DNA from: a virus
Taxonomy: Duplodnaviria; Heunggongvirae; Uroviricota; Caudoviricetes
Direction: 5' to 3' (one strand)
Virus record (IMG/VR): IMGVR_UViG_2529292719_000015
DNA length: 6,978 bases
Each line of letters opens with the position of its first letter. Position 1 is the first letter of the stretch. Below the pieces are notes generated by a model. The model worked only from the letters and a program-made list of their open reading frames with translations, was not told the origin of the DNA and did no database searches. The translations under genes and the position numbers were made by a program. Shown piece after piece: positions 1 through 6,978 of the stretch.

Positions 1-365
1 CTAAATCACGTCAGCGCTGGCTGTTTTACGCGTATGACAGGATACGGAGGACAGTTGTGGCGCACGTTTTCGGTGAACGCACTCTGGCCACACTGGCGCG
101 TCTTCTGAGCCTGCTGTCGGCCTTTGAGGTCGTGGTATGGATGACGGATGGCTGGCCGCTGTATGAATCACGCCTGAAGGGAAAGCTGCACGTTATCAGC
201 AAGCGTTACACTCAGCGCATTGAGCGACATAATCTGAATCTGAGACAACATCTGGCAAGGCTGGGACGGAAGTCACTGTCGTTCTCAAAATCGGTGGAGC
301 TGCATGACAAGGTCATCGGGCATTATCTGAACATAAAACACTATCAGTAAGTTGGAGTCACTACC
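1..365 (+). mobile_element. IS1 right-hand portion (insB 3' end to right inverted repeat)
   Basis: Ends at 343-365 with ATCAGTAAGTTGGAGTCACTACC, which matches the IS1 right terminal repeat (canonical ATCAATAAGTTGGAGTCATTACC as recalled). Carries the insB C-terminal reading frame. Positions 1-26 are identical to 6953-6978. Confidence 0.93.
3..350 (+). CDS. insB: IS1 transposase InsB, C-terminal part (5' end lies in the IS1 portion at the window end)
   Basis: Frame is open from position 3 ([12 protein letters not shown]...) to the stop at 348-350. Translation ...[21 protein letters not shown]...[70 protein letters not shown] matches the IS1 InsB C-terminus. The M at 57 in the ORF track is an internal GTG codon, not the real start. 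Confidence 0.9.
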
Positions 366-458
366 GTCGGTGCGGTACTGACGATATTAACCTTCCTGGT
401 GCATATCACCCTCGGCGTGTGGTGGTGGAATATGCTGATCGGCTGGAACATGCTGTAA
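366..458 (+). pseudogene. ybhI: 3'-terminal remnant of ybhI (membrane transporter) truncated by the IS1 insertion
   Basis: In-frame hydrophobic tail VGAVLTILTFLVHITLGVWWWNMLIGWNML* starts directly after the IS1 right end, with no start codon. Position upstream of ybhJ matches the K-12 gene order ybhI-ybhJ-ybhC-attB. Confidence 0.7.
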
Positions 459-601
459 ATATTCTCGTCATACTTCAAGTTGCATGTGCTGCGTCTGCGT
501 TCGCTCACCCCAGTCACTTACTTATGTAAGCTCCTGGGGATTCACTCGCTTGTCGCCTTCCTGCAACTCGAATTATTTAGAGTATATCCATTTATTATCT
601 T

Positions 602-625
602 TCTGCGCACTTCACGGTGCGCAGA
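602..625. promoter_or_regulatory. Perfect GC-rich inverted repeat (9-bp stem, 6-nt loop) just upstream of the ybhJ ribosome-binding site
   Basis: TCTGCGCAC (602-610), loop TTCACG, then GTGCGCAGA (617-625), an exact reverse complement. No T-tract follows on either strand, so it is not a typical intrinsic terminator. Confidence 0.45.
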
Positions 626-640
626 TATCTGGAGCATTTG

Positions 641-2902
641 ATGATCAAGTTATCTGAAAAAGGCGTGTTTCTCGCCAGTAATAACGAAATAATTGCCGAA
701 GAACATTTCACCGGCGAAATTAAAAAAGAAGAAGCCAAAAAAGGCACTATTGCCTGGTCTATTCTCTCTTCGCATAATACGTCCGGAAATATGGATAAAC
801 TTAAAATTAAGTTTGATTCATTAGCCTCTCACGATATTACCTTTGTTGGTATTGTACAGACCGCTAAAGCGTCCGGTATGGAACGTTTCCCGCTGCCGTA
901 TGTGCTGACCAACTGCCATAACTCACTCTGCGCCGTCGGCGGCACTATTAACGGTGATGACCATGTTTTTGGTTTATCGGCGGCCCAGCGTTATGGCGGG
1001 ATTTTTGTGCCTCCGCATATTGCGGTCATCCATCAATATATGCGTGAGATGATGGCAGGCGGCGGCAAAATGATCCTCGGGTCAGACAGCCACACCCGTT
1101 ACGGTGCATTAGGGACAATGGCAGTCGGTGAGGGCGGCGGTGAGTTGGTAAAACAGCTGCTTAATGACACCTGGGATATCGACTATCCGGGCGTGGTTGC
1201 GGTGCATCTGACCGGAAAACCTGCGCCGTATGTGGGGCCACAGGATGTGGCGCTGGCTATCATTGGCGCGGTGTTCAAAAACGGTTACGTCAAAAACAAA
1301 GTCATGGAGTTCGTTGGACCGGGCGTTAGCGCGCTCTCTACCGATTTCCGTAACAGCGTTGACGTGATGACCACTGAAACGACCTGTTTAAGTTCTGTCT
1401 GGCAAACCGATGAAGAAGTCCATAACTGGCTGGCGCTGCACGGTCGCGGCCAGGATTACTGCCAGCTTAACCCTCAACCGATGGCGTACTACGATGGCTG
1501 CATCAGCGTTGATTTAAGCGCCATCAAACCAATGATTGCGCTGCCGTTCCACCCGAGCAACGTGTATGAAATCGACACACTGCACCAGAACCTGACCGAC
1601 ATTCTGCGTGAGATTGAAATTGAGTCCGAACGCGTGGCGCACGGTAAAGCCAAACTCTCGCTGCTGGATAAAGTGGAAAATGGTCGCCTGAAAGTGCAGC
1701 AGGGGATTATCGCGGGCTGTTCTGGCGGTAACTACGAAAACGTCATCGCGGCGGCGAATGCACTGCGCGGTCAATCCTGTGGCAATGACACCTTCTCGCT
1801 GGCAGTTTACCCGTCATCACAGCCGGTGTTTATGGATCTCGCCAAAAAAGGTGTGGTAGCAGATTTGATTGGCGCAGGCGCAATCATCAGAACCGCGTTC
1901 TGCGGCCCATGCTTTGGCGCGGGCGATACGCCAATCAACAACGGTTTGAGTATTCGCCACACCACGCGTAACTTCCCGAACCGCGAAGGCTCTAAGCCAG
2001 CTAATGGGCAGATGTCAGCGGTGGCGTTGATGGACGCTCGTTCTATCGCTGCGACTGCGGCAAACGGTGGCTATTTAACCTCTGCCAGCGAACTTGATTG
2101 CTGGGACAACGTGCCGGAGTACGCCTTCGATGTAACGCCGTATAAAAACCGTGTTTATCAGGGCTTTGTGAAAGGGGCAACTCAGCAACCGCTGATTTAC
2201 GGGCCGAACATTAAAGACTGGCCGGAATTGGGTGCGCTGACTGACAATATCGTCCTGAAAGTGTGCTCGAAGATCCTCGACGAAGTGACCACCACCGACG
2301 AACTGATTCCTTCCGGTGAAACCTCTTCTTATCGTTCAAATCCGATTGGTCTGGCGGAGTTTACCCTGTCTCGCCGCGATCCCGGTTATGTTAGCAGAAG
2401 TAAAGCGACTGCTGAGCTGGAAAATCAGCGTCTGGCGGGGAATGTCAGCGAGCTGACAGAGGGGTTTGCGCGCATTAAGCAGATTGCTGGTCAGGAGCAT
2501 ATTGATCCGCTGCAAACTGAAATTGGCAGCATGGTCTATGCGGTGAAACCAGGCGATGGTTCTGCGCGTGAACAGGCGGCGAGCTGCCAGCGTGTGATTG
2601 GCGGTCTGGCGAATATTGCCGAGGAGTACGCGACTAAACGCTATCGTTCTAACGTCATCAACTGGGGGATGTTACCGCTGCAAATGGCGGAAGTACCAAC
2701 CTTTGAAGTGGGGGATTACATTTACATCCCTAGCATTAAAGCGGCGCTGGATAATCCGGGTACGACGTTTAAAGGTTATGTGATCCATGAAGATGCGCCG
2801 GTAACGGAAATTACGCTCTATATGGAAAGTCTGACTGCTGAAGAGCGCGAGATTATCAAGGCGGGTAGTTTGATTAACTTCAATAAAAACCGTCAGATGT
2901 AA
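641..2902 (+). CDS. ybhJ: Aconitase-family putative hydratase YbhJ
   Basis: 753-codon ORF from ATG 641, preceded by GGAG at 631-634. The ORF track's 617 start is a GTG inside the hairpin. Aconitase-family motifs are present (GSDSHT, CGPCFG cysteine ligands, SRRDPG). Gene order matches K-12. Confidence 0.9.
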
Positions 2903-2917
2903 AAAGCGCCATGTGAA

Positions 2918-3119
2918 TGTAGGTCGCATTCGGCACTTATTGTCGGATGCGATGCTTGCGCATCTTATCCGACCTACGAATCGCATCGAATCTGTAGGCC
3001 AGATAAGGCATTTTCGCAGCATCCGGCACTTATTGTCGGATGCGATGCTTGCGCATCTTATCCGACCTACAAATCGCATCGAACCGTAGACCGGATAAGG
3101 CGTTTACGCCGCATCCGGC
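2918..3119. repeat. REP/BIME cluster between convergent ybhJ and ybhC
   Basis: Four full REP-like palindromic units in alternating orientation (about 2942-2977, 2994-3027, 3035-3070, 3086-3119) plus a partial unit at about 2918-2936. A ~93-bp block (CGGCACTTATTGTCGGATGCGATGCTTGCGCATCTTATCCGACCTAC...) is tandemly duplicated with a few mismatches. Confidence 0.85.
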
Positions 3120-3135
3120 AAATAGTTAATTGCTC

Positions 3136-4419
3136 TTACTTCTTCGCCTCTGCAACCACTTTACTACCCACGCCGCGGTTATTGTATTCCCACATGCGGT
3201 TGTAGTTAGTGTCATTCAGATTGCGCTGTATTTCGTCGTTATCATCTACGCTGCCGGTATTACCCGCAAACGGACGATTAGAGATCACCGCATCGGCCCA
3301 CGGTTTAGCCGTGTTAAAACCTTCGTTGATGGCGCTATCACGGATCACCACCTGACCGTTGGTATTGGCATCAACATCCAGCGAGCGGCCCAGTTGCGCC
3401 ACACCATCACCGAAAGCATTGAAACGGCTGTTTACGGCGAGGAAACCGTAGTAAATGTTGGACAGCGTAGCCGGTGCAAACACATACGCTTCTTGCTGAG
3501 TACGTGAGTTCACCACGCGGAATTCGGTGTTATCGAACACCACTGCGCCGCGACCAGAAACGATATCCACATCCCCTTCAATGTAGCTGTTGGTCACCAG
3601 CGTACGCGGCTGACGATTCGTTTCCAGACGGTTCTGCACACCGCTGTTGGTGACAAAGAAGGTGTTCTGACGACCGAGAATGTTAACGTTGTTAATCTGT
3701 ACCTGGTCACCATCAGTACGCAGTGCCACCGCCGGATGGTTACCTGCATCTACGCTATCGCCCAGCGTGTTTTCGATGGTCAGATTTTGCAGTTGCAGGC
3801 CATTGTTTTGTGACCAGAAGACCGCAGAGCAGAGAACACCGATACTGTCGCTGCGTTTGCTCTGGCAGCTATCGTACATATACCACGCTGGTTTACCTGG
3901 CATATATTTGCCGCGCGGGTTGACGTCGTGACGCCAGTCGGCAGGGCTCATGCCACCATCAAGGGAAAGCCCAATCTTCACATCAATCGGTTTTTCACCT
4001 GTACCGTACAGAGTAATTCCACCCGGAGCGGCAGGGACATATACCGTTCCCTGATACTCACCAGGCATCACGGCAATATACTGGCGCTTGTTGGTACGCT
4101 TGATAATTGCCGCATCTACCGCCGCCTGAATCGTGGTATGCGTTACACCTTGAGTGCCCGCCGGGCCGACAACAAAGTCAGGTTGCGCAGGCAGGGTAAT
4201 CGGGGAAGGATTCCACGCTGCAGCACCTGGTGTCAGGGATGCAAAATAGTGTTGAGCATCGAAATTCTGCGCTTCTTTTGCCGACAGAATCGGGCGAGAA
4301 GAGGTACCAGGCGCGGTTTGATCAGAAGGACGTTGATCGGGCGGGGTTGAGCTACAGGCGGTCAGCGTCACGCCAAAAGCCAATGCCAGCGCCAGACGGG
4401 AAACTGAAAATGTGTTCAC
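3136..4419 (-). CDS. ybhC: Outer-membrane lipoprotein YbhC, pectinesterase (CE8)-like fold
   Basis: 427-aa ORF starting with GTG at 4417-4419, GGAG 6 nt upstream. N-terminal signal peptide with lipobox LTAC. Sits immediately next to the attB-derived arm, as in K-12. Confidence 0.9.
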   Translation of the reverse strand: MNTFSVSRLALALAFGVTLTACSSTPPDQRPSDQTAPGTSSRPILSAKEAQNFDAQHYFASLTPGAAAWNPSPITLPAQPDFVVGPAGTQGVTHTTIQAAVDAAIIKRTNKRQYIAVMPGEYQGTVYVPAAPGGITLYGTGEKPIDVKIGLSLDGGMSPADWRHDVNPRGKYMPGKPAWYMYDSCQSKRSDSIGVLCSAVFWSQNNGLQLQNLTIENTLGDSVDAGNHPAVALRTDGDQVQINNVNILGRQNTFFVTNSGVQNRLETNRQPRTLVTNSYIEGDVDIVSGRGAVVFDNTEFRVVNSRTQQEAYVFAPATLSNIYYGFLAVNSRFNAFGDGVAQLGRSLDVDANTNGQVVIRDSAINEGFNTAKPWADAVISNRPFAGNTGSVDDNDEIQRNLNDTNYNRMWEYNNRGVGSKVVAEAKK

Positions 4420-4454
4420 AGGTTGCTCCGGGCTATGAAATAGAAAAATGAATC

Positions 4455-4560
4455 CGTTGAAGCCTGCTTTTTTATACTAAGTTGGCATTATAAAAAAGCA
4501 TTGCTTATCAATTTGTTGCAACGAACAGGTCACTATCAGTCAAAATAAAATCATTATTTG
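4455..4560. other. Lambda attL (B-O-P'): bacterial B arm, 15-bp common core, phage P' arm with IHF H' and Int arm-type sites
   Basis: B arm CCGTTGAAGCCT, then core GCTTTTTTATACTAA at 4466-4480, then P' arm GTTGGCATTATAAAAAAGCATTGCTTATCAATTTGTTGCAACGAACAGGTCACTATCAGTCAAAATAAAATCATTATTTG. IHF-like ATCAATTTGTTG at about 4504-4518. Arm-type repeats AGGTCACTAT, CAGTCAAAAT, AAATCATTAT at about 4527-4557. The int stop codon lies inside the P' arm, as in lambda. Confidence 0.92.
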
Positions 4561-5624
4561 ATTTCAATTTTGTCCCACTCCCTGCCTCTGTCATCACGAT
4601 ACTGTGATGCCATGGTGTCCGACTTATGCCCGAGAAGATGTTGAGCAAACTTATCGCTTATCTGCTTCTCATAGAGTCTTGCAGACAAACTGCGCAACTC
4701 GTGAAAGGTAGGCGGATCCCCTTCGAAGGAAAGACCTGATGCTTTTCGTGCGCGCATAAAATACCTTGATACTGTGCCGGATGAAAGCGGTTCGCGACGA
4801 GTAGATGCAATTATGGTTTCTCCGCCAAGAATCTCTTTGCATTTATCAAGTGTTTCCTTCATTGATATTCCGAGAGCATCAACATGCAATACTGTTGGGA
4901 TGGCAATTTTTACGCCTGTTTTGCTTTGCTCGACATAAAGATATCCATCTACGATATCAGACCACTTCATTTCGCATAAATCACCAACTCGTTGCCCGGT
5001 AACAACAGCCAGTTCCATTGCAAGTCTGAGCCAACATGGTGATGATTCTGCTGCTTGATAAATTTTCAGGTATTCGTCAGCCGTAAGTCTTGATCTCCTT
5101 ACCTCTGATTTTGCTGCGCGAGTGGCAGCGACAGGGGTTGTTGTTATATGGCCTTCAGCTATTGCCTCTCGGAATGCATCGCTCAGTGTTGATCTGATTA
5201 ACTTGGCTGACGCCGCCTTGCCCTCGTCTATGTATCCATTGAGCATTGCCGCAATTTCTTTTGTGGTGATGTCTTCAAGTGGAGCATCAGGCAGACCCCT
5301 CCTTATTGCTTTAATTTTGCTCATGTAATTTATGAGTGTCTTCTGCTTGATTCCTCTGCTGGCCAGGATTTTTTCGTAGCGATCAAGCCATGAATGTAAC
5401 GTAACGGAATTATCACTGTTGATTCTCGCTGTCAGAGGCTTGTGTTTGTGTCCTGAAAATAACTCAATGTTGGCCTGTATAGCTTCAGTGATTGCGATTC
5501 GCCTGTCTCTGCCTAATCCAAACTCTTTACCCGTCCTTGGGTCCCTGTAGCAGTAATATCCATTGTTTCTTATATAAAGGTTAGGGGGTAAATCCCGGCG
5601 CTCATGACTTCGCCTTCTTCCCAT
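4554..5624 (-). CDS. int: Lambda-type tyrosine integrase Int
   Basis: 356-aa ORF (MGRRRSHERRDLPPNLYIRNNGYYCYRDPRTGKEFGLGRDRR...GREWDKIEIK) is near-identical to phage lambda Int as recalled. It overlaps xis by 23 bp and ends in the P' arm. Confidence 0.95.
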   Translation of the reverse strand: MGRRRSHERRDLPPNLYIRNNGYYCYRDPRTGKEFGLGRDRRIAITEAIQANIELFSGHKHKPLTARINSDNSVTLHSWLDRYEKILASRGIKQKTLINYMSKIKAIRRGLPDAPLEDITTKEIAAMLNGYIDEGKAASAKLIRSTLSDAFREAIAEGHITTTPVAATRAAKSEVRRSRLTADEYLKIYQAAESSPCWLRLAMELAVVTGQRVGDLCEMKWSDIVDGYLYVEQSKTGVKIAIPTVLHVDALGISMKETLDKCKEILGGETIIASTRREPLSSGTVSRYFMRARKASGLSFEGDPPTFHELRSLSARLYEKQISDKFAQHLLGHKSDTMASQYRDDRGREWDKIEIK

Positions 5625-5820
5625 TTCTGATCCTCTTCAAAAGGCTACCTGTTACTGGTCGATTTAAGTCAACCTTTACCGCTGATTCGTGGAACAGATA
5701 CTCTCTTCCATCCTTAACCGGAGGAGGGAATATCCTGCACTCGCGTACCCATCGACGAACTGTTTCAAGGCTTCTTGGGCGTCGCTGGCGTGCGTTCCAC
5801 TCCTGAAGTGTCAAGTACAT
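5602..5820 (-). CDS. xis: Lambda excisionase Xis
   Basis: 72-aa ORF MYLTLQEWNARQRRPRSLETVRRWVRECRIFPPPVKDGREYLFHESAVKVDLNRPVTGSLLKRIRNGKKAKS matches lambda Xis. 23-bp overlap with the int start. Confidence 0.95.
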   Translation of the reverse strand: MYLTLQEWNARQRRPRSLETVRRWVRECRIFPPPVKDGREYLFHESAVKVDLNRPVTGSLLKRIRNGKKAKS

Positions 5821-5832
5821 CGCAAAGTCTCC

Positions 5833-5846
5833 GCAATTACACGCAA
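5833..5846 (-). promoter_or_regulatory. cII-binding TTGC-N6-TTGC element of the pI (int) promoter
   Basis: The minus strand reads TTGCGTGTAATTGC immediately upstream of the xis ATG, the arrangement known for lambda pI. cII itself is not encoded in this window. Confidence 0.65.
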
Positions 5847-5847
5847 G

Positions 5848-5868
5848 AAAAAACCGCCATCAGGCGGC
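5848..5868 (-). terminator. Candidate intrinsic terminator between the orf55-like gene and xis
   Basis: The minus strand reads CCGCC-TGAT-GGCGG followed by TTTTTTCTT. The stem is short (5-6 bp) and overlaps the orf55 stop codon. Confidence 0.45.
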
Positions 5869-6027
5869 TTGGTGTTCTTTCAGTTCTTCAATTCGAATAT
5901 TGGTTACGTCTGCATGTGCTATCTGCGCCCATATCATCCAGTGGTTATAACAGTCGTTGATGTTCTCTGCTTCGATAACCCTGTTGAATGGCTCTCCATT
6001 CCATTCACCTGTGACTCGGAAGTGCAT
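5860..6027 (-). CDS. Small hypothetical protein, lambda orf55-like (55 aa)
   Basis: ATG at 6025-6027 (minus) and stop at 5860-5862, translated by hand as MHFRVTGEWNGEPFNRVIEAENINDCYNHWMIWAQIAHADVTNIRIEELKEHQAA. Position and length match the 55-codon ORF next to xis in the lambda genome as recalled. No clear Shine-Dalgarno seen. Confidence 0.5.
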   Translation of the reverse strand: MHFRVTGEWNGEPFNRVIEAENINDCYNHWMIWAQIAHADVTNIRIEELKEHQAA

Positions 6028-6038
6028 TTATCATCTCC

Positions 6039-6066
6039 ATAAAACAAAACTCGCCGTAGCGAGTTC
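6039..6066 (-). terminator. Intrinsic terminator downstream of the 142-aa orphan gene
   Basis: The minus strand reads AACTCGC-TACG-GCGAGTT (7-bp stem) followed by TTGTTTTAT, about 45 nt after the gene's stop codon. Confidence 0.6.
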
Positions 6067-6110
6067 AGATATAATTTCCACCAAAGGCAGTAGTTGCTTG
6101 ATGCTAAGAA

Positions 6111-6539
6111 TTATTCAATATCTATTCCTGTAATATCTTTTATCTTTTTCCTTGCAAAGCCTTTTGCTAGTGATTTTGAAACACTCATAAGTGTACTAAT
6201 TCCCTCATCCTTAAAGTTTGTTTTTATAGCTTGCCAGACATCCTTTTGACGTAAGTCAGCAATAAAATCATGCCCTCTTGCTGTCAACCTCAGTGGTACT
6301 TCGATCCAACTATATCCAACACCTTCCCCTAACGCTTTGGACAATATATGATCGAACCCAGGTTTTCCATCAACCCTGACTATTAATTCGTAGTCACATA
6401 ATAATCGCATATGGAAAATAAAATCTTGGTCATATCTATTAAAGCCATTATCCTCTAGTTCACTAAGCATCGTGTCAGGGCCACGAGTTTTTTCGAATGC
6501 GATAAGTAGATCTTTTAGATATTGCTGGTCTAATTTCAT
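6111..6539 (-). CDS. Hypothetical protein of unknown function (142 aa), AT-rich accessory gene in the prophage pL-operon region
   Basis: ATG at 6537-6539 (minus), preceded by GGAGG with 5-nt spacing. Stop at 6111-6113. Translation MKLDQQYLKDLLIAFEKTRGPDTMLSELEDNGFNRYDQDFIFHMRLLCDYELIVRVDGKPGFDHILSKALGEGVGYSWIEVPLRLTARGHDFIADLRQKDVWQAIKTNFKDEGISTLMSVSKSLAKGFARKKIKDITGIDIE. The ORF track's longer 150-aa version starts at a TTG inside the IS1 terminal repeat and is not credible. No family recognised by eye. Confidence 0.7.
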   Translation of the reverse strand: MKLDQQYLKDLLIAFEKTRGPDTMLSELEDNGFNRYDQDFIFHMRLLCDYELIVRVDGKPGFDHILSKALGEGVGYSWIEVPLRLTARGHDFIADLRQKDVWQAIKTNFKDEGISTLMSVSKSLAKGFARKKIKDITGIDIE

Positions 6540-6604
6540 TGCCGCCTCCGGTGATGCTGCCAACTTACTGATTTAGTGTATGATGGTGTTTTTGAGGTGC
6601 TCCA

Positions 6605-6880
6605 GTGGCTTCTGTTTCTATCAGCTGTCCCTCCTGTTCAGCTACTGACGGGGTGGTGCGTAACGGCAAAAGCACCGCCGGACATCAGCGCTATCTCTGC
6701 TCTCACTGCCGTAAAACATGGCAACTGCAGTTCACTTACACCGCTTCTCAACCCGGTACGCACCAGAAAATCATTGATATGGCCATGAATGGCGTTGGAT
6801 GCCGGGCAACTGCCCGCATTATGGGCGTTGGCCTCAACACGGTTTTACGTCACTTAAAAAACTCAGGCCGCAGTCGGTAA
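6605..6880 (+). CDS. insA: IS1 InsA (transposition regulator / N-terminal part of the InsAB' transposase)
   Basis: 91-aa [46 protein letters not shown]...[10 protein letters not shown] with a CxxC...CxxC zinc-finger pattern, matching IS1 InsA. Confidence 0.93.
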
Positions 6881-6978
6881 CCTCGCGCATACAACCGGGC
6901 AGTGATGTGATTGTCTGCGCGGAAATGGACGAACAGTGGGGCTACGTCGGTGCTAAATCACGTCAGCGCTGGCTGTTT
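6856..6978 (+). CDS. insB: IS1 insB reading frame, 5' part, reached by -1 frameshift at the A6C motif (continues at window positions 3-350)
   Basis: AAAAAAC at 6856-6862 is the known IS1 slippery site. The -1 frame is open from 6778 to the window end (…[42 protein letters not shown]) and is in phase with the InsB frame at the window start. Confidence 0.8.

Follow-up and report, generated by a model that had tools for sequence, protein, structure and literature searches.

A 6,978 bp Escherichia coli draft contig from the lambda attachment region with both ends inside IS1

Gene content of the window

The stretch of DNA analysed here (the window, 6,978 bp) corresponds over its whole length to GenBank draft contig AQDD01000017.1, part of an isolate draft assembly (GCA_000355475.2). 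Its left end lies within an insertion sequence: coordinates 1–365 (+ strand) correspond to IS1 positions 404–768, the right-hand 365 bp of the element, which include the C-terminal part of insB (3–350, +) and IRR (343–365, +), match Pfam DDE_Tnp_IS1, and are identical here to the resident IS1 of the comparison locus L001. This copy is inserted in the anion permease gene ybhI, whose last 93 bp, including the TAA stop, follow at 366–458 (+) and are colinear with L001 5001–5093; the L001 ybhI coding sequence spans 3660–5093, and its 5’ 1,341 bp are absent from the window. To the right are ybhJ (641–2902, +), which encodes a 753 aa aconitase-family hydratase (L001 annotation and Pfam Aconitase) with an apparent V608G change that is probably a consensus error, and ybhC (3136–4419, –), coding for a pectinesterase-fold lipoprotein annotated as a putative acyl-CoA thioester hydrolase, assignments that draw on annotation and Pfam. 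The two genes are separated by a REP/BIME-like pair of ~93 bp repeats (2926–3120, no strand assigned; repeat families D1 and D2), which we take to be REP elements by the E. coli REP consensus.

Homology to phage lambda starts at coordinate 4466, where the att common core GCTTTTTTATACTAA (4466–4480, +) occurs as a single exact match (0/200 shuffles) and marks attL, the junction between chromosome and prophage remnant. The remnant contains leftwards-transcribed genes for a lambda-type integrase of 356 aa (4554–5624, –; 98.9% nucleotide identity to lambda int, Pfam Phage_integrase and Arm-DNA-bind_1), a 72 aa excisionase, Xis (5602–5820, –; Pfam Exc), a 55 aa hypothetical prophage ORF known from annotation (5860–6027, –), and a 142 aa DUF2513 protein (6111–6539, –) with a G63D allele (T at window 6352) that is the sole genuine marker of this clone. 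The window ends with the left-hand 429 bp of IS1 (IS1 1–429; 6550–6978, +), containing IRL (6550–6572, +) and insA (6605–6880, +) followed by the start of insB. This is the resident copy that truncates the prophage; it is the same as the L001 IS1, and its junction recurs in 24 complete genomes with 100% identity.

The first-pass annotation was correct in placing ybhJ, ybhC and the int-xis-attL module within an IS1-bounded unit. The Pfam matches of the cargo include no replication protein, and the content (aconitase-family and pectinesterase-fold proteins, Int, Xis, the 55 aa ORF, DUF2513 and IS1 only) is not that of an autonomous replicon or of a phage genome with direct terminal repeats.

Terminal identity and reach into IS1

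The longest prefix of the window that is also its suffix is exactly 26 nt (CTAAATCACGTCAGCGCTGGCTGTTT; 1–26 and 6953–6978, both +), giving a period of 6952, and both values agree with those measured previously. Joining 6550–6978 to 27–365 yields 768 bp in which insA, the A6C frameshift motif (AAAAAAC, 6856–6862) and the insB frame are unbroken, confirming that the two pieces less their overlap make one intact IS1 with insB in phase. The rebuilt element has the properties of the IS1 family, with a length of ~768 bp, the terminal inverted repeats GGTGATGCTGCCAACTTACTGAT and GGTAGTGACTCCAACTTACTGAT (imperfect, with IRL and IRR arms of 24 nt that are 79% complementary; ~23 bp in the family), and insA plus insB’ arranged for production of an InsAB’ transposase by –1 frameshifting at A6C. 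It matches Pfam Zn_ribbon_InsA/HTH_Tnp_IS1 and DDE_Tnp_IS1, and is identical at 768/768 positions to an IS1 of the closed genome NZ_CP029981.1; the RefSeq label on an identical copy is ‘IS1 family transposase, programmed frameshift’.

A 26 nt identity is far beyond chance, yet its cause is trivial: both contig ends lie inside one repeat, and the terminal ‘repeat’ of the window is simply IS1 positions 404–429. Once the summed reaches into a 768 bp repeat pass 768, the surplus bases are present at both ends of the contig (365 + 429 = 794 = 768 + 26), and both the sum of exactly 768 bp and the phase of the insB frame follow automatically from the two ends lying in IS1. The 9 bp just inside the two IS1 pieces differ, as reported before (GCCGCCTCC at 6541–6549 versus GTCGGTGCG at 366–374), but as inner flanks of two separate IS1 copies they would not be expected to duplicate one another.

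Both IS1/cargo junctions are reproduced base for base in AQGG01000022.1 (6,859 bp), AQDE01000019.1 (6,696 bp) and the ENA SPAdes contig NODE_1120 (6,433 bp). These reach into IS1 by 317/358, 192/320 and 125/124 bp (left/right) and their ends do not meet; of the four assemblies compared, only the window has a summed reach above 768. Because the reach varies between assemblies, the terminal overlap is not proof that a single IS1 joins the two ends of the cargo. The reach also varies elsewhere in this batch, from ~247 to 333 bp at a second IS1 junction, a further IS1-bounded draft contig (JNSA01000119.1) has ends meeting at IS1 427–430, and APXO01000121.1, an 84.9 kb linear contig of a sister assembly (ushA flank), begins at exactly the IS1 base with which the window starts. 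In AQDE and AQCZ the contig-end consensus inside IS1 flips between IS1 types, which indicates collapsed copies. We also considered whether the shared terminus at IS1 404 is a fixed de Bruijn node (k = 27), and set this aside as unprovable, since the contigs were selected by that criterion and sister contigs end elsewhere.

The window is thus very probably a linear contig of a short-read draft assembly that represents a chromosomal segment from an ETEC-lineage E. coli isolate, bounded by two similarly oriented IS1 copies, and the apparent circle is best read as an assembly by-product rather than a circular DNA molecule. The earlier description of the window as circularly permuted is not sustained: AQDD01000017.1 is linear, its ends fade inside IS1, and the sister assemblies of the locus do not close. 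Of the first explanation then offered, the chromosomal segment between two identical direct IS1 copies stands in substance, and its collapse into a circle does not. What was observed directly is that both junctions are present and recur across assemblies, that the reach into IS1 varies, that the IS1 sequence is identical to that of the resident copy, and that the cargo is colinear with the chromosome; from these we infer that two physical IS1 copies bracket the cargo.

The chromosome of the clone would then contain, at the classical lambda attachment site, a 6,184 bp stretch between two direct IS1 copies with the 3’ end of ybhI, ybhJ, ybhC, attL, int, xis and two small prophage genes. The right copy would be old and fixed, having cut off most of a lambdoid prophage, and the left copy would have inserted more recently, 93 bp from the 3’ end of ybhI, and is presumably chromosomal with an outer flank of its own. 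With dozens of IS1 copies present, an assembler would extend from the unique cargo only partway into each flanking element, by 365 bp to the left and 429 bp to the right in this assembly, the two reaches coming from two physical copies of identical sequence. Co-resident IS1 types differ at 262–414 and are identical again from 415, which is the likely cause of the stop. The AQDD assembly presumably comes from a project that used Celera Assembler with 300 bp inserts at >200x (PMC4462620), and would then be a Celera Assembler product. A literature search found no mention of the WGS accessions.

A chromosomal tandem amplification, [IS1-cargo]n-IS1, produced by unequal crossing-over between direct IS1 copies, would have a compatible set of junctions and a contig that closes on itself, and amplification of this type has been described for directly repeated IS1 (PMC7986276). 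We regard it as very improbable here: reach lengths alone explain the closure, which is absent from three other assemblies of the clone, and the sole coverage figure (10.6x for the SPAdes node, with no comparator) lends no depth support to extra copies.

Chromosomal context and the flanking IS1 copies

The cargo is colinear as one piece in 1,835 of 5,426 complete E. coli genomes. Exactly at the right edge of the cargo, 24 of these genomes carry an IS1 in the same orientation that is identical to the window IS1 at 768/768 bases and is followed by a truncated blc-like gene. This resident copy has no target duplication (GCCGCCTCC to its left versus GGTATTCTC to its right), and the 9 bp outer-flank duplication that had been proposed as a check is therefore not found for it. 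A search of plasmid and phage collections with the whole window identified no record with the unit.

Two independent deletions in related strains are anchored at the IRL of the resident IS1, one of 8,980 bp (AQEU) and one of 9,229 bp, the latter carried by AQFJ and by the closed genomes E54, E1316, E1648, E1654 and E1739. Their far ends are in ybhD, at L001 1955 and 2204, and not at the ybhI site of the window. We considered whether the mosaic IS1 of AQFJ records excision of the unit by an IS1 x IS1 crossover, and discarded this because E8 has that mosaic as its resident IS1 allele with the region intact.

These deletions bear on the second explanation offered previously, that a real 6.95 kb circle was sequenced. 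Such a non-replicating 6,952 bp molecule (one IS1 plus cargo), abundant enough to assemble, could originate by recA-dependent recombination between the direct IS1 copies, or as the reciprocal product of intramolecular replicative transposition of IS1 (adjacent deletion) into ybhI. The window does have the junctions expected of it, the old cargo-end|IRL and the new IRR|ybhI, the two IRL-anchored deletions suggest that circle-making chemistry or recombination operates at the locus, and a precedent exists in the R100.1/NR1 r-determinant (PMC7986276). The known deletions, however, end in ybhD rather than at the ybhI site and are not reciprocal products, the ybhI5’|IRL junction is in no complete genome, and none of the complete genomes has the reciprocal deletion chromosome (ybhI 5’|IS1|blc’). 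Moreover, the unit lacks a replication function, yet three isolate assemblies, seven ENA assembly places and four Logan runs all contain it, from which we conclude that it is inherited across isolates, metagenome assemblies and runs. A circle accompanying an intact locus would also branch the contigs at the start of the cargo, whereas in each of the four assemblies the contig continues directly into IRR with no intact-ybhI branch. We regard a sequenced circle as extremely improbable. It is likewise very improbable that the 6,952 bp unit with its intact lambda int-xis-attL is an active element, looping out or amplifying in tandem through its direct IS1 copies as a living intermediate of the ybhD-to-prophage deletions fixed in sister sub-clades. 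The clone’s DUF2513 allele is found on 14 contigs, every one (14/14) shorter than 10 kb, showing that the segment never assembles past its flanks.

With the unit read as chromosomal, a simple insertion of the left copy predicts the 5’ part of ybhI, with a 9 bp duplication, ending in TGGTGGTTGGTCGGTGCG and running straight into GGTGATGCTGCC of IRL. The ybhI5’...GTCGGTGCG|IRL junction is absent from all complete genomes searched, and megablast of both left-hand junctions against the 5,426 complete genomes gave two-piece matches only, with IS1 elsewhere in ybhI; an exact 40-mer search for IRR|ybhI in IMG/VR, GTDB representative genomes and JGI metagenomes returned 0 matches. The predicted YbhI(1-450)-IS1 read-through protein is absent from ~15 billion proteins by exact look-ups that covered duplications of 7–11 bp and seven contig-edge truncations, while 148 contigs index the equivalent read-through at the resident IS1, used as a positive control. 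Many sister drafts have contigs ending at ybhD’|IS1, but a reading of these as the missing outer-left flank is not supported, since closed genomes assign that junction to a simple 9.2 kb deletion allele.

The absence of all predicted read-through products with a working control raises the possibility that the left IS1 is something other than a simple insertion, with an outer flank that is not ybhI 5’, either through a further IS1-adjacent deletion or other rearrangement that removed ybhI 5’ and upstream genes, or through a move of the unit to another site as a Tn9-like compound transposon. The frequency of IS1-anchored deletions at this locus and the lack of a target duplication at the resident IS1 itself are consistent with this, but one amino acid difference in the YbhI of the clone would also explain the negative look-up, and a move of the whole unit is at odds with the ancestral position of the right IS1 and the colinearity of the cargo with the native chromosome. 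We consider a non-simple left end unlikely. A chromosomal analogue of the two-copy arrangement is verified in the closed genome E143, where ybhI is interrupted by an IS1 with TGAAGTCTT on both sides (9 bp duplication) and the resident IS1 is also present in the same orientation; this ybhI insertion is independent of that in the window.

The finding is ordinary IS1 biology together with an assembly effect. Its main value is as a caution that contig termini matching within a multi-copy IS do not demonstrate circularity. This contig, on which genes for a phage integrase and excisionase lie, would be misclassified by pipelines in which terminal repeats of at least 20 nt suffice to call a plasmid or virus circular. 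The finding is also a further case in ETEC of the gal-bio/lambda attB region being remodelled by IS1, with ybhI insertions, prophage truncation and 9 kb deletions, as is expected of IS1.

Comparison with known systems

IS1 adjacent deletions arise by intramolecular replicative transposition, and include the classical deletions of the gal region. The deletions in related strains resemble these in being nested, with one end fixed at the resident IRL and variable ends in ybhD, and the lack of a target duplication at the resident IS1 is a further likeness. The window clone differs in that it keeps the segment, and its IRR|ybhI junction is of the insertion or excised-circle type rather than a deletion junction. 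The compound transposon Tn9, with direct IS1 copies around cat, similarly has a few kb bracketed by two direct elements, but the cargo here occupies its native ybhI-ybhC-attB region with the right IS1 at its ancestral position, and there is no sign that the unit moved whole.

The r-determinant of R100.1/NR1 has the same architecture, with direct IS1 copies flanking resistance genes; it forms a recA-dependent, non-replicative circle with one IS1 and undergoes amplification, and such circles and tandem arrays are expected as rare by-products (PMC7986276). The window unit differs in that its DNA is chromosomal, made up of housekeeping and prophage genes, and includes no selectable marker, and neither circle nor amplification is observed. 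IS26 translocatable units, in which one IS and adjacent DNA are considered as a circular intermediate (PMC7986276), are comparable in that respect, but they belong to another IS family with another mechanism, and the window shows no circular form.

A close parallel is with repeat-bounded, falsely ‘circular’ short-read contigs, in which a unique segment lies between copies of a multi-copy IS, both ends fall in the repeat, and the repeat is itself the source of the matching termini. The effect is seen again in JNSA01000119.1 and in the sister contigs that stop short, and there is no substantive difference; the only peculiarity of the window is that its reaches exceed the length of the IS by 26 nt.

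Identity and content of the contig

An exact look-up with the end-truncated InsB fragment identifies the window as the entire GenBank contig AQDD01000017.1 of the isolate draft assembly GCA_000355475.2. Of 5,426 complete E. coli genomes, 1,835 carry the cargo between its two IS1 pieces (366-6549; 6,184 bp) as one colinear block, and the genomes nearest to the window are ETEC strains of the O6:H16 type, such as 99-3165. The cargo starts with the last 93 bp of ybhI (366 onward), followed by ybhJ, ybhC, the lambda att core GCTTTTTTATACTAA (4466-4480), an int-xis pair with 98.9% identity to phage lambda, a hypothetical 55-aa ORF, and a DUF2513 gene as the last gene. Two tandem REP/BIME-like palindromic repeat units of ~93 bp lie between ybhJ and ybhC (2926-3120). 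The int-xis-hyp-DUF2513 block (4466-6554) shares 99.8% identity with Escherichia phage Chlobot (PP925838.1), and the match extends 5 nt beyond the IS1 boundary; the phage continues with GGTGA as does the start of IRL, one of the IS1 terminal inverted repeats, so that the point at which IS1 entered the phage sequence can be placed only to within 5 nt.

The window differs from its closest complete genomes at four positions, three of which are T-to-G changes immediately after GG (1000, 2463 and 5137). Two of these occur in the window contig alone and the third also in one sister assembly; the clone's remaining assemblies read T at those sites. Sequence-specific Illumina errors in the consensus probably account for them, and the YbhJ V608G and Int N163T variants they create are probably spurious. 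The same kind of T-to-G change after GG is seen in L012 at the equivalent of window position 4147. The remaining difference, DUF2513 G63D (6352), is a private allele of the clone and the sole genuine marker among the four. A look-up of this allele gives 14 contigs of less than 10 kb each, among them the sister drafts AQGG01000022.1 (6,859 bp) and AQDE01000019.1 (6,696 bp), the SPAdes metagenome node ERZ1743097 NODE_1120 (6,433 bp), six similar places, and four Logan runs.

Terminal overlap and the question of a circle

The terminal features reported in the first-pass annotation are reproduced. The longest prefix identical to a suffix is 26 nt (1-26 and 6953-6978), giving a period of 6952, and the two IS1 pieces (6550-6978 and 27-365) join into one element of 768 bp that passes sequence tests for IS1, with terminal inverted repeats, insA, the A6C frameshift site, and an unbroken insB frame. 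The inner 9-mers adjoining the IS1 ends, GCCGCCTCC and GTCGGTGCG, are unlike, as was also noted. However, both IS1/cargo junctions match those of the window in all aligned sister contigs, and the assemblies differ in how far they reach into IS1: 365 bp on the left and 429 bp on the right in the window (sum 794), 317 and 358 bp in AQGG01000022.1 (675), 192 and 320 bp in AQDE01000019.1 (512), and 125 and 124 bp in the SPAdes node (249). Only in the window does the sum exceed 768, by 26. Since both ends lie in identical copies of one repeat, the identical termini, the exactly reconstituted IS1 and the frame in phase follow arithmetically from this excess.

Other contig ends point the same way. 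The 84.9-kb linear contig APXO01000121.1 of a sister assembly, with a ushA flank, begins at the window's exact IS1 base, and at another IS1 junction, contigs of that sequencing batch extend ~247 to 333 bp into the element. JNSA01000119.1 (6,502 bp; metG region), from an unrelated project, has an IS1 half at each end, the two overlapping by 4 nt at IS1 positions 427-430, and would likewise look circular to a low-threshold terminal-repeat test. At least two IS1 types are present in these genomes, with differences confined to IS1 positions 262-414 and identity resuming from 415. In AQDE and AQCZ the consensus at contig ends within IS1 switches between types, a signature of collapsed copies. The window ends at IS1 positions 404 and 429, on the transition between the variable and shared sequence, which plausibly accounts for where contig extension stopped.

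The other proposal, a real circle of one IS1 plus cargo, is not borne out. The terminal overlap is arithmetic, the cargo contains no replication gene, and the IS1-bounded unit is inherited, since it turns up again in several isolates, in metagenome assemblies and across sequencing runs. A circle present beside an intact locus would cause assemblies to fork at the cargo start; no fork is found there, and the cargo runs unbranched into IRR in all four assemblies. Searches of plasmid and phage collections found the IS1-bounded unit in no record. With the junctions shared across assemblies and the same arrangement present in a closed genome (E143, below), the window is very probably a stretch of chromosome flanked by two directly repeated IS1 copies, and its two ends in all likelihood derive from two different physical copies. 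A chromosomal tandem array of the IS1-cargo unit would also place cargo between direct IS1 copies, and we consider it highly improbable.

The two IS1 copies, probably both chromosomal

In 24 complete genomes an IS1 oriented as in the window lies exactly at the right edge of the cargo, and next to it comes a truncated blc-like lipocalin gene (blc'). This resident IS1 is identical to the element rebuilt from the window at 768 of 768 positions. It separates the prophage DUF2513 gene from blc' (window 6541-6549; 11185-11961 in L001, from NZ_CP029981.1) and has no surrounding target duplication; the site bears the mark of an earlier deletion, mediated by IS1, in which most of the lambdoid prophage was lost. 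With two chromosomal copies, the resident IRR would read into blc' as ...GGAGTCACTACC joined to GGTATTCTC. The resident IS1 has two alleles at this site, one of the window type (L001, L021, L026) and one a mosaic (L002, L023, L031, L043) with IS1A/B-type bases at 13 positions within IS1 262-414 (window 6811-6963), which resembles a gene-conversion patch.

All 24 of these genomes have an intact ybhI, so the sole new junction in the window is that of IRR with GTCGGTGCG, 93 bp before the ybhI stop codon. Neither this junction nor its expected partner is present in any of the 5,426 complete genomes, and the junction was not found in IMG/VR, GTDB representative genomes or JGI metagenomes. A simple insertion would join the 5' part of ybhI and a 9-bp duplication to IRL as ...TGGTGGTTGGTCGGTGCG followed by GGTGATGCTGCC, and the clone should then encode YbhI(1-450)+GDAANLLI. 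This product is absent among ~15 billion proteins, as are the read-through variants for 7, 8, 10 and 11-bp duplications and contig-edge truncations; for the resident IS1, the corresponding Blc' read-through product is indexed on 148 contigs. Either one residue is changed in the YbhI of this clone, or another sequence lies outside the left IS1, for example after a further IS1-adjacent deletion.

The proposed arrangement is seen directly in E143, a closed genome of the same lineage, with the order ybhI5'-IS1-ybhI3'-ybhJ-ybhC-int-xis-hyp-DUF2513-IS1-blc' and with its two IS1 copies pointing the same way. Its ybhI element (L021 8383-9150) is IS1B-type with 47 mismatches, lies ~300 bp further upstream than the window's and has a perfect 9-bp duplication, TGAAGTCTT; it is an independent insertion. 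Two left-junction searches returned 50 and 13 complete genomes, respectively, with an IS1 no more than ~650 bp from the insertion site in the window, at several positions and of various IS1 types; IS1 appears to have targeted ybhI repeatedly.

Blc' read-through also revealed two independent deletions with one end at the resident IRL and the other at different points in ybhD, the IRR side remaining joined to blc'. Both remove ybhD'-ybhH-ybhI-ybhJ-ybhC-int-xis-DUF2513, over 8,980 bp in AQEU01000005.1 and 9,229 bp in AQFJ01000005.1; the latter is fixed in five closed genomes of Bangladeshi ETEC (E54, E1316, E1648, E1654 and E1739) and occurs at contig ends of many sister drafts. This is classical IS1 adjacent-deletion behaviour. 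The mosaic IS1 in AQFJ01000005.1 was considered as a crossover scar of excision of the two-IS1 unit and rejected, as the same mosaic is the resident allele in E8, where the region is intact. The deletions show that the resident IS1 is active at this locus, and circles of the kind first envisaged must arise transiently; the deletion end-points differ from those of the window, and nothing points to the window being such a circle.

Relationship to known IS1-bounded units

The IS1-bounded unit does not qualify as a replicon, as a phage genome with terminal repeats, or as a transposed compound transposon. Its closest known likenesses are repeat-bounded or falsely circular contigs, IS1 adjacent deletions, Tn9-type compound transposons, and the r-determinant of R100.1/NR1, with which it shares a direct-IS1 architecture and which is able both to excise as a non-replicative circle and to undergo amplification (PMC7986276). 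The original observation is correct and its cause ordinary, and the window contains nothing new in kind relative to these systems.
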